Positions 27,744 through 28,835 of a DNA stretch of 64,000 nucleotides are shown here, piece after piece. The notes under the pieces are model-generated. The model was given only the letters and a program-made list of their open reading frames with translations. It was not told where the DNA came from and made no database searches. The DNA comes from Escherichia coli (GTDB lineage: Bacteria; Pseudomonadota; Gammaproteobacteria; Enterobacterales; Enterobacteriaceae). A program made the position numbers and the translations under genes. The stretch lies in assembly GCF_003991155.1 (NCBI RefSeq), contig NZ_CP031293.1; one strand, given 5' to 3'. How positions within the stretch are numbered: the first letter of the stretch is position 1; each line of letters opens with the position of its first letter.

Positions 27744-28559
27744 TTATGCTGGCAACGGTCCGTTTTGTATAGGGACCGTTGCCTTACTTTTTAAATGTTC
27801 CATCGCGGCGATGCATACTGACTCATATTGAAACAGATCGTCAGCGAAAAAAATGGCCAACTTATCAATACATTCCTGGCTCAATGAATGTGCCTGTAGC
27901 GAGAAGCTTAAAACCTCATACCCGAGACGTTTTCTAAGTGAACTATCTGGAATACTCATAATATCTTCAAGCACACCATTTCCTATTCCCGGAAGATTTA
28001 GTGGATTAAAAAGAAGACTGATATTAAGCATTGATATTATCGAAGGAAACTTTAGGAGACTCTCATTTTTTTGAATCGCAGCAAAAATGCTCCCGACAGG
28101 ATGTATATAATTTTGTTCATAGTATATAGTCCTTAAATAGTGAATAACCAACCTGTTTTTTATATTGATCAAATTGGTCATTTTTTCTGGGCGAAATACA
28201 GAAGTGACATCCATTCCAATAAAATCTTTATTTATACCTCTTATCCGAATTTCACTACCATAAAGATTATTAATTATTACTCTATATTTAACATTGTCCT
28301 GCAGATATGTATCAAAACTAAGTGCTGGCGCTCCTGGCTTTGAGGCATCATAGTTAATGTTAGACATATAGGCAATCATATAATTAAAGTTTGATTCTGC
28401 TATTTCATCGCAGTCACATTGACCCGTTGATATAAAGAAAGTGAGTGCTGTCATAGTAGACTGCAGCCTTTCTTTAAAAGAGTCGAAAGCCAGGCTTTTA
28501 ATATTTAAATCACCATAATTACTCTGTATTAAGTTTGTAGAAAGCATCTCCCGCCTCAT
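27744..28559 (-). CDS. ydjO: AT-rich hypothetical protein
   Basis: 271-aa ORF (alternative start at 28547 would give 267 aa); no recognisable domain; synteny between tcyP and cedA. Confidence 0.7.
   Translation of the reverse strand: MRREMLSTNLIQSNYGDLNIKSLAFDSFKERLQSTMTALTFFISTGQCDCDEIAESNFNYMIAYMSNINYDASKPGAPALSFDTYLQDNVKYRVIINNLYGSEIRIRGINKDFIGMDVTSVFRPEKMTNLINIKNRLVIHYLRTIYYEQNYIHPVGSIFAAIQKNESLLKFPSIISMLNISLLFNPLNLPGIGNGVLEDIMSIPDSSLRKRLGYEVLSFSLQAHSLSQECIDKLAIFFADDLFQYESVCIAAMEHLKSKATVPIQNGPLPA
27751..27793 (+). terminator. tcyP rho-independent terminator
   Basis: ggcaacggtcc...ggaccgttgcc 11-bp stem followed by ttactttttaaa; overlaps the 3' end of convergent ydjO. Confidence 0.7.
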
Positions 28560-28835
28560 ATTGTTAACAAAATTATTATCTCATTTAAATCTAAGTCATT
28601 TACAATATAAGTTTAAGAGCGACGCCACAGGATGAACTATCAAAAATAGCTCATCATGATTAGCAAAACTTAACCATTTTAAAATAAATAAACAATTAAA
28701 GAAAAAAGTTCACTTATTTATAGCAATAGATCGTCAAAGGCAGCTTTTTGTTACAGGTGGTTTGAATGAATGTAGCAATGAAATACAAAATTTCAGGCCA
28801 TGTAACTCCCGACAAAACCGGGAGGTACGTAATCT

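Follow-up and report, generated by a model that had tools for sequence, protein, structure and literature searches.

An AT-rich cassette carrying the orphan gene ydjO at the tcyP-cedA terminator site of Escherichia coli

The described genes that most resemble ydjO of Escherichia coli are the xenogeneic genes of strain K-12 that are silenced by H-NS, as represented by the promoter islands of Ozoline and the H-NS SELEX targets of Shimada and Ishihama. Like these genes, ydjO is poor in G and C (0.30-0.35 against 0.50) and is absent from related genomes. Indeed, the spacer between ydjO and cedA is itself one of 78 "promoter islands" of K-12, is occupied by H-NS according to the ChIP data of Kahramanoglou and of Oshima, and has been tied to genes predicted to be foreign by two methods (PMC3661553). 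Unlike the H-NS-silenced islands, however, ydjO is a single gene that has neither mobility genes nor a tRNA anchor and that stands in place of a terminator between convergent core genes. It can also be set beside the orphan genes of enterobacteria, in that its product is limited to a genus, AT-rich in its coding sequence, short, fast-evolving, poorly structured in prediction, and often lost. It differs from the typical orphan in that one can reconstruct its insertion point, the ancestral state of the site, and a division into three deep allelic lineages. Finally, YdjO has been listed with YahL and YjfZ among the "conserved signature proteins" of E. coli and Shigella, as an uncharacterised protein with no significant BLASTp matches beyond E. 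coli/Shigella, and its gene has been put forward as a marker by which qPCR could detect all E. coli/Shigella (PMC11057252).

Here we consider ydjO as it occurs in a 64,000-nucleotide stretch of E. coli DNA (hereafter the window, by which we mean the whole stretch). It is a known, uncharacterised gene, and what was noticed in the window is real and mostly described before: earlier publications cover the gene and its status as an orphan, the prediction that it is foreign, the promoter island, and the binding of H-NS. What we add is the ancestral state of the site and the extent of the segment that was replaced, the absence of the gene from a fifth of complete E. coli genomes, a common nonsense allele, diverged homologues, a signature of weak purifying selection, and an upstream dyad. 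Taken together, the evidence makes it likely that ydjO is a genus-restricted accessory gene on an AT-rich cassette of roughly 1.1 kb that is bound by H-NS, replaces a terminator, is weakly selected, and is dispensable.

Composition of ydjO and searches with its product

The region of the window that holds ydjO is 100% identical to E. coli strain 2016C-3878, for which RefSeq gives the gene order hxpB, ydjM, tcyP, ydjO, cedA, and katE. An earlier, sequence-only reading had proposed an ORF of about 270 codons with a markedly AT-rich upstream region of 276 bp and a product rich in Asn, Ile, and Tyr, and each of these features was borne out. In its longest form the ORF occupies positions 27744-28559 on the minus strand and comprises 271 codons counted from the first ATG; the RefSeq coding sequence starts at the second ATG and occupies 27744-28547 on the same strand (804 nt, 267 amino acids), its start codon (at 28547) being preceded by AGGCGGGAG. 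Between the ORF and cedA lies the 276-bp spacer (28560-28835, minus strand), which is the published promoter island and H-NS-bound region. The ORF has a GC content of 0.355, the spacer one of 0.304, and the two together, over 1092 bp, one of 0.342, as compared with a window mean of 0.504. At a length of 1092 nt they mark the GC minimum of the 64-kb window (lowest point at 27758, z = -3.6, with 0.08% of positions equally low). GC3 is 0.31 for ydjO, as against 0.48-0.58 for hxpB, ydjM, tcyP, and cedA. Relative to the neighbouring proteins, YdjO is enriched 2.3-fold in Tyr, 2.3-fold in Asn, and 1.9-fold in Ile; it is acidic (pI 5.6), has a mass of about 30 kDa, and displayed no transmembrane-like segment on analysis of its sequence.

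The window has a second AT-rich patch, of low GC over 17969-20624, which holds espL1, an intact 632-amino-acid ORF for the type III secretion effector EspL1 located at 18515-20413 on the plus strand between thrS and yniD. CFT073 has a frameshifted pseudogene of the ShET2/EspL2 family at the espL1 position.

The protein had also been described as free of assignable motifs and its gene as an orphan, and on both counts our searches agree: family, defence, phage, plasmid, and solved-structure searches all came back blank, structure prediction gave no confident model of the whole protein, and no homologue was found beyond Escherichia. YdjO matched no family of Pfam or NCBIfam at E <= 10 and none of PADLOC (anti-phage defence) or PHROGs (phage proteins) at E <= 1, and a sequence profile search of the PDB gave no significant match, the best being to designed repeat proteins (E = 0.067). 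The best AlphaFold model of YdjO has a mean pLDDT of 59 and reaches 70-84 for residues 20-140 only, for which two helices, a five-stranded antiparallel sheet, and one more helix are predicted; the C-terminal half is predicted to be helical. Fold searches returned nothing significant, and neither the family nor the fold searches revealed a nuclease, ATPase, or toxin-like motif or fold. YahL and YjfZ (DUF2686), which are close to YdjO in length, were for that reason tested as its paralogues and were rejected (BLASTP E = 0.32 for YahL and 2.2 for YjfZ, with no Pfam match). An Rfam scan of 27500-29400 produced one chance match, which was below threshold. The literature filed under b1730 contained nothing related to ydjO, and a paper on hydrogen in the LTEE, in which SNPs in ydjO go with H2 production, offers a two-strain correlation that we do not accept as functional evidence.

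The tcyP-cedA site with and without ydjO

To reconstruct the history of the site we fetched loci via CedA, one genome per species, and placed tcyP, cedA, katE, and ydjO in each; the comparison with outgroups covered roughly 40 loci from the Enterobacteriaceae. In Citrobacter, Salmonella, Enterobacter, Kluyvera, Leclercia, Phytobacter, Atlantibacter, and Klebsiella indica, tcyP and cedA are convergent neighbours with no ydjO between them, and the gene was absent from the site in every outgroup examined. At most of these loci the empty spacer measures 51-115 bp, although a handful reach lengths of up to 357 bp; with the empty-site Escherichia included, the usual range is 46-115 bp. The spacer holds a single stem-loop between runs of A and of T, which amounts to a bidirectional terminator shared by the two genes. 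The site is likewise empty in E. whittamii and in the Escherichia genomes E1V33, E69, and SCPM-O-B-8794 (GTDB counts all four as separate species, and two of them are labelled E. coli). It is also empty in E. coli strains TO60, CFT073, EC958, JJ1886, and SE15, which belong to phylogroup B2, and in many O25b:H4-ST131 isolates. Since the outgroups, other members of the genus, and the B2 strains are all empty, the empty state is ancestral, in agreement with the earlier proposal that ydjO lies on horizontally acquired DNA.

How much DNA was acquired can be read from the same comparison. The occupied allele differs from the ancestral empty one over the whole of 27741-28853, from the base that follows the tcyP stop codon to a point within cedA that takes in its last six sense codons. 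At the 3' end of cedA (28836-28856) the encoded residues are QEGEVTE when ydjO is present (QEGEVAE in the case of E. albertii), whereas E. coli with an empty site has QENEVEE, as do most other Escherichia. The derived ending, QEGEV[T/A]E, is common to all haplotypes that bear ydjO, including that of E. albertii, and to a deletion scar in Escherichia sp. MOD1-EC7003. Since the difference runs from 27741 to about 28853, the cassette replaced the terminator and was not merely inserted beside it. As judged by these alignments, then, ydjO is an acquired cassette that took the place of the shared terminator. We found no integrase, transposase, tRNA anchor, or terminal repeats at 27741 or 28853, and the segment holds one ORF only. 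Its sole long direct repeat is internal and consists of two 18-nt copies on the plus strand, at 27826-27843 and 28719-28736, with the core AGATCGTCA. In MOD1-EC7003 both ends of the cassette are kept and the interior is deleted, with the junction in the AGATCGTCA repeat, so that recombination between the two copies explains the scar.

The left end of the cassette carries a terminator of its own. Perfect 11-bp inverted-repeat arms at 27751-27761 and 27773-27783 begin 11 nt past the tcyP stop codon and form a hairpin (27751-27783, plus strand) with an 11-nt loop, followed by a T-rich tract; the hairpin falls within the last 13 codons of ydjO, as was claimed when the 3' end of the gene was described as interlocked with the terminator of tcyP. 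On the tcyP strand the RNA has a folding energy of -23 kcal/mol (z = -5.0), and next to it comes UUACUUUUUAAAU, an interrupted U-tract. The structure thus has the GC-rich stem-loop and U-tract of a Rho-independent terminator; a simple terminator scan overlooked it on account of the 11-nt loop. E. albertii has a homologous hairpin arm and T-tract at the equivalent place. On the ydjO strand no U-tract follows the terminal hairpin, and therefore transcription from ydjO might read through into the antisense strand of tcyP. At the other end, just 3' of cedA, is a hairpin, CTCCCGGTTTTGTCGGGAG (28806-28824, minus strand), that is followed by no U-tract and is not significant (-13.5 kcal/mol, z = -1.4); because it is weak, transcription from cedA could read through into ydjO. 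We picture the cassette, then, as having replaced the ancestral bidirectional terminator of tcyP and cedA in some Escherichia lineage; it would have brought with it its own promoter region and a new tcyP hairpin that doubles as the C-terminal codons of YdjO.

Diverged homologues, decay, and selection

Word-indexed searches and an exhaustive single-protein search with HMMER returned sequences from E. coli and Shigella, many of them truncated, together with one artefact. A tblastn search of the fetched loci, however, revealed a diverged homologue located 3' of cedA in E. albertii (40% identity over 111 amino acids, z = 27 against shuffles), and a word-indexed profile search recovered it in full length as P0100, a protein of 257 amino acids with 125 cluster members (E = 2.5e-62) that is collinear with YdjO and 32-34% identical to it from end to end. 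The E. albertii gene lies between cedA and tcyP, and its stop codon is 1 nt from that of tcyP. Similarity is lost at the nucleotide level (blastn in distant mode with the E. albertii gene gave no match in E. coli genomes), and a 24-mer specific to E. albertii had no match when metagenomes were scanned for it. The third lineage, P0005, shares 75% identity with YdjO; it is carried by Escherichia sp. HH41S, by Escherichia sp. 94.0001, and by some genomes that bear the name E. coli. In one genome of this type the flanks are 95-100% identical to the window and the 5' half of ydjO just 68-85%. None of the word-indexed, HMMER, or profile searches found a homologue outside the genus Escherichia, and tblastn found no match in 50,697 phage records. 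We caution that the exhaustive HMMER search, which covered 1.84 billion cluster representatives, missed the E. albertii cluster of 125, so that an absence of hits in a library of representatives is not conclusive for YdjO. The derived cedA end common to the occupied haplotypes and the hairpin arm and T-tract common to E. coli and E. albertii argue for a single origin of the cassette, which would have been followed by long divergence and by exchange through recombination in the flanks.

Two sets of candidate homologues were discarded. Three tblastn matches in plasmids all proved to be mislabelled chromosomes. P0030, a supposed distant homologue (299 amino acids, 26% identity), is the E. coli locus in which A and G have traded places at almost every position, an artefact of sequencing or assembly; it comes from a 2-kb contig of Logan SRR33321306 that spans cedA, ydjO, and tcyP and in which 484 A are changed to G and 354 G to A, with T and C unchanged. 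Such an A/G-swapped contig can mislead homology searches. We also observed that in E. albertii chbG directly adjoins cedA, katE, which lies between them in E. coli and most other genera, being missing there (positions 3566-4838 of the E. albertii loci).

The sequence-only reading had called for a survey of presence and absence, and the gene indeed proved to be variable across Escherichia. Among 5426 complete genomes of E. coli, the cassette is present in 4298; a contiguous empty junction is found in 1124, which leaves 21% without ydjO, and the remaining few have IS1-associated rearrangements. These counts bear on the proposal that YdjO is a signature protein (PMC11057252): the gene is not universal, in that the 1124 genomes without it include CFT073, EC958, JJ1886, and SE15, nor is it exclusive, in view of the homologue in E. 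albertii (32-34% identity) and the allele in some other Escherichia lineages (75%). The carriers are themselves unusually diverse. The identity of the segment falls as low as 94.4%, and in a sample of nine alleles its nucleotide diversity is 0.044, versus 0.010-0.021 for tcyP, cedA, and katE. The clinically dominant B2 lineages ST131 and ST73 are among those that lack the gene.

Many carriers harbour a damaged copy. A TGA at codon 123, scored as an exact 53-nt match, was found in 932 genomes, that is, in at least 932 of the 4298 carriers, and three of eight sampled alleles are annotated as pseudogenes. The BL21 gene has a stop 7 codons early, and further frameshifts or truncations mark ydjO of the O157 strain DEC4E and of BL21. 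Insertions of IS1 and IS10 at ydjO are on record, with IS1 lying within the gene in 39EVA and CH10468. Split forms of ydjO are common in E. albertii too. In E. coli ES4 (locus 4226-6322), two copies of IS1 flank a deletion of most of ydjO, cedA, katE, chbG, and part of chbF (celF).

Despite this decay, the intact alleles bear the mark of selection on the protein. Six intact E. coli alleles gave a dN/dS of 0.19 at a dS of 0.12, as compared with dN/dS values of 0.01-0.08 for neighbouring genes. Against the P0005-type allele dN/dS was 0.23-0.28, and over codons 1-160 it was 0.23 (dS 0.76, dN 0.17); no tested window of ydjO exceeded 0.4 in this comparison. When E. coli is compared with E. albertii, dS is 0.55-0.74 and dN 0.012-0.035 for the flanking genes, whereas ydjO has a dN of 0.70 with its synonymous sites saturated, and still the two ORFs are collinear. 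By these measures ydjO is a real protein-coding gene under weak purifying selection. Either YdjO evolves very fast or its alleles may predate the split of the species; a chance ORF does not fit. Between the window and K-12, ydjO has eight nonsynonymous and no synonymous changes, a pattern that would fit a recent loss of constraint.

Upstream region and competing explanations

A promoter scan identified a sigma-70-like promoter, ATGACT-16-AATAAT, at 28572-28599 on the minus strand, which places it about 25 nt before the start codon given by RefSeq. The same promoter was reported as the constitutive RpoD promoter of ydjO on the basis of genomic SELEX with RpoD holoenzyme, and the ydjO/cedA spacer was marked in that study with an H-NS SELEX site that overlaps the RpoD site (PMC3946193); a SELEX peak for RpoS holoenzyme was reported at the position of the spacer as well (PMC5493296). 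Our two-hexamer scan of 27500-29400 found 4 sites where 4.6 were expected, and it should be borne in mind that the published promoter islands were defined with another algorithm. The promoter predicted at 28572-28599 is not conserved in the P0005-type allele or in other divergent alleles. Nor was the high-affinity 10-bp motif for H-NS, TCGATAAATT, enriched in the cassette: it has three matches with two mismatches, none of them in the spacer. In the literature we found no measurement of derepression of ydjO in an hns deletion.

What is conserved upstream of ydjO is a short block, GATGAGCTATTTTTGATAGTT (28635-28655, minus strand), whose 21 nt are identical in the window and in E. albertii (locus positions 4901-4921) and whose last 20 nt are identical in the P0005-type allele (at about 2892-2911 of that locus). 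The surrounding spacer has diverged or cannot be aligned. The block contains an imperfect dyad, AGCTAT-N5-ATAGTT, and occurs once in the window; it is a candidate binding site for a regulator.

From the published binding data it seems most likely that H-NS on the cassette keeps the promoter at 28572-28599 off under ordinary conditions. Expression of ydjO would then need counter-silencing, perhaps by a protein that binds the dyad at 28635-28655, or read-through from cedA. The product would be a soluble, acidic protein of about 30 kDa, weakly but truly selected and yet dispensable, since it is never present in B2 strains and is decaying in many carriers.

Decay on this scale raises the question of whether ydjO is now effectively junk, an acquired ORF without present function that is drifting to loss and whose AT-rich DNA is a mere target for H-NS and IS elements. 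The 21% of genomes that lack the gene with no visible consequence, the codon-123 stop in at least 932 of 4298 carriers and the additional lesions in DEC4E and BL21, the prevalence of split forms in E. albertii, the IS insertions, and the eight nonsynonymous changes and no synonymous one that separate the window from K-12 all point that way. We nonetheless judge it unlikely, for dN/dS remains at 0.19-0.28 over divergences up to a dS of 0.76, and the ORF is intact and collinear in E. albertii at a dN of 0.70, with a dS of about 0.6 in the flanks, by which time an unconstrained AT-rich ORF of 800 nt would have closed. Some of the same observations could be accounted for, in quite another way, if YdjO took part in anti-phage, anti-plasmid, or interbacterial conflict and its gene, under balancing or diversifying selection, moved between species by way of the conserved flanks. 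There are three deeply diverged haplotypes (the E. coli, P0005, and E. albertii types); the P0005 type sits in flanks that are 95-100% identical even though identity drops to 68-85% in the 5' half of the gene; dN between E. coli and E. albertii, at 0.70, is as large as the neutral dS of the neighbours (0.55-0.74); and polymorphism for presence together with silencing of the H-NS type recalls many defence islands. But YdjO has no match in PADLOC, PHROGs, phages, or plasmids and no nuclease, ATPase, or toxin-like motif or fold, its gene stands alone without partner genes, and dN/dS is below 1 overall and above 0.4 in no tested window, so that a role of this kind is very unlikely in our estimation. 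The fuller proposition that ydjO is a fast-evolving conflict or niche gene, whose three lineages and presence or absence are held under balancing or diversifying selection with exchange across species and a dedicated regulator at the 20-nt dyad, strikes us as a long shot, as does the related idea that ydjO was born de novo within Escherichia from the inserted AT-rich DNA.

Least of all do we expect the selected function to reside in the DNA or RNA itself, with the cassette supplying the tcyP terminator and convergent, terminatorless transcription of ydjO modulating tcyP by antisense read-through. Such an arrangement would make sense of a hairpin and T-tract that E. coli and E. albertii have both kept while the peptide encoded across them differs (SKATAPIQNGPLPA versus SRATARGNEPSRLY), of the missing U-tract on the ydjO strand of the hairpin, and of a transcriptome study in which ydjN (tcyP) and ydjO were both serum-responsive (PMC4145685). 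Against it, dN/dS is well under 1 along the entire ORF, as expected of selection on the protein, and the ancestral terminator serves tcyP perfectly well in B2 strains and in all outgroups; we consider it extremely improbable.

The biological import of the locus is modest, ydjO being one more H-NS-bound orphan. In practical terms the gene is a poor universal marker for E. coli: about one in five complete genomes lacks it, and one of its alleles is divergent; therefore a qPCR assay for ydjO will undercount the species. For the evolution of the genus, the site offers a clean and datable case in which a single-gene cassette replaced a shared bidirectional terminator and supplied a new hairpin that is also read as codons, and the invariant 20-nt dyad upstream provides a concrete handle for a search for the regulator.
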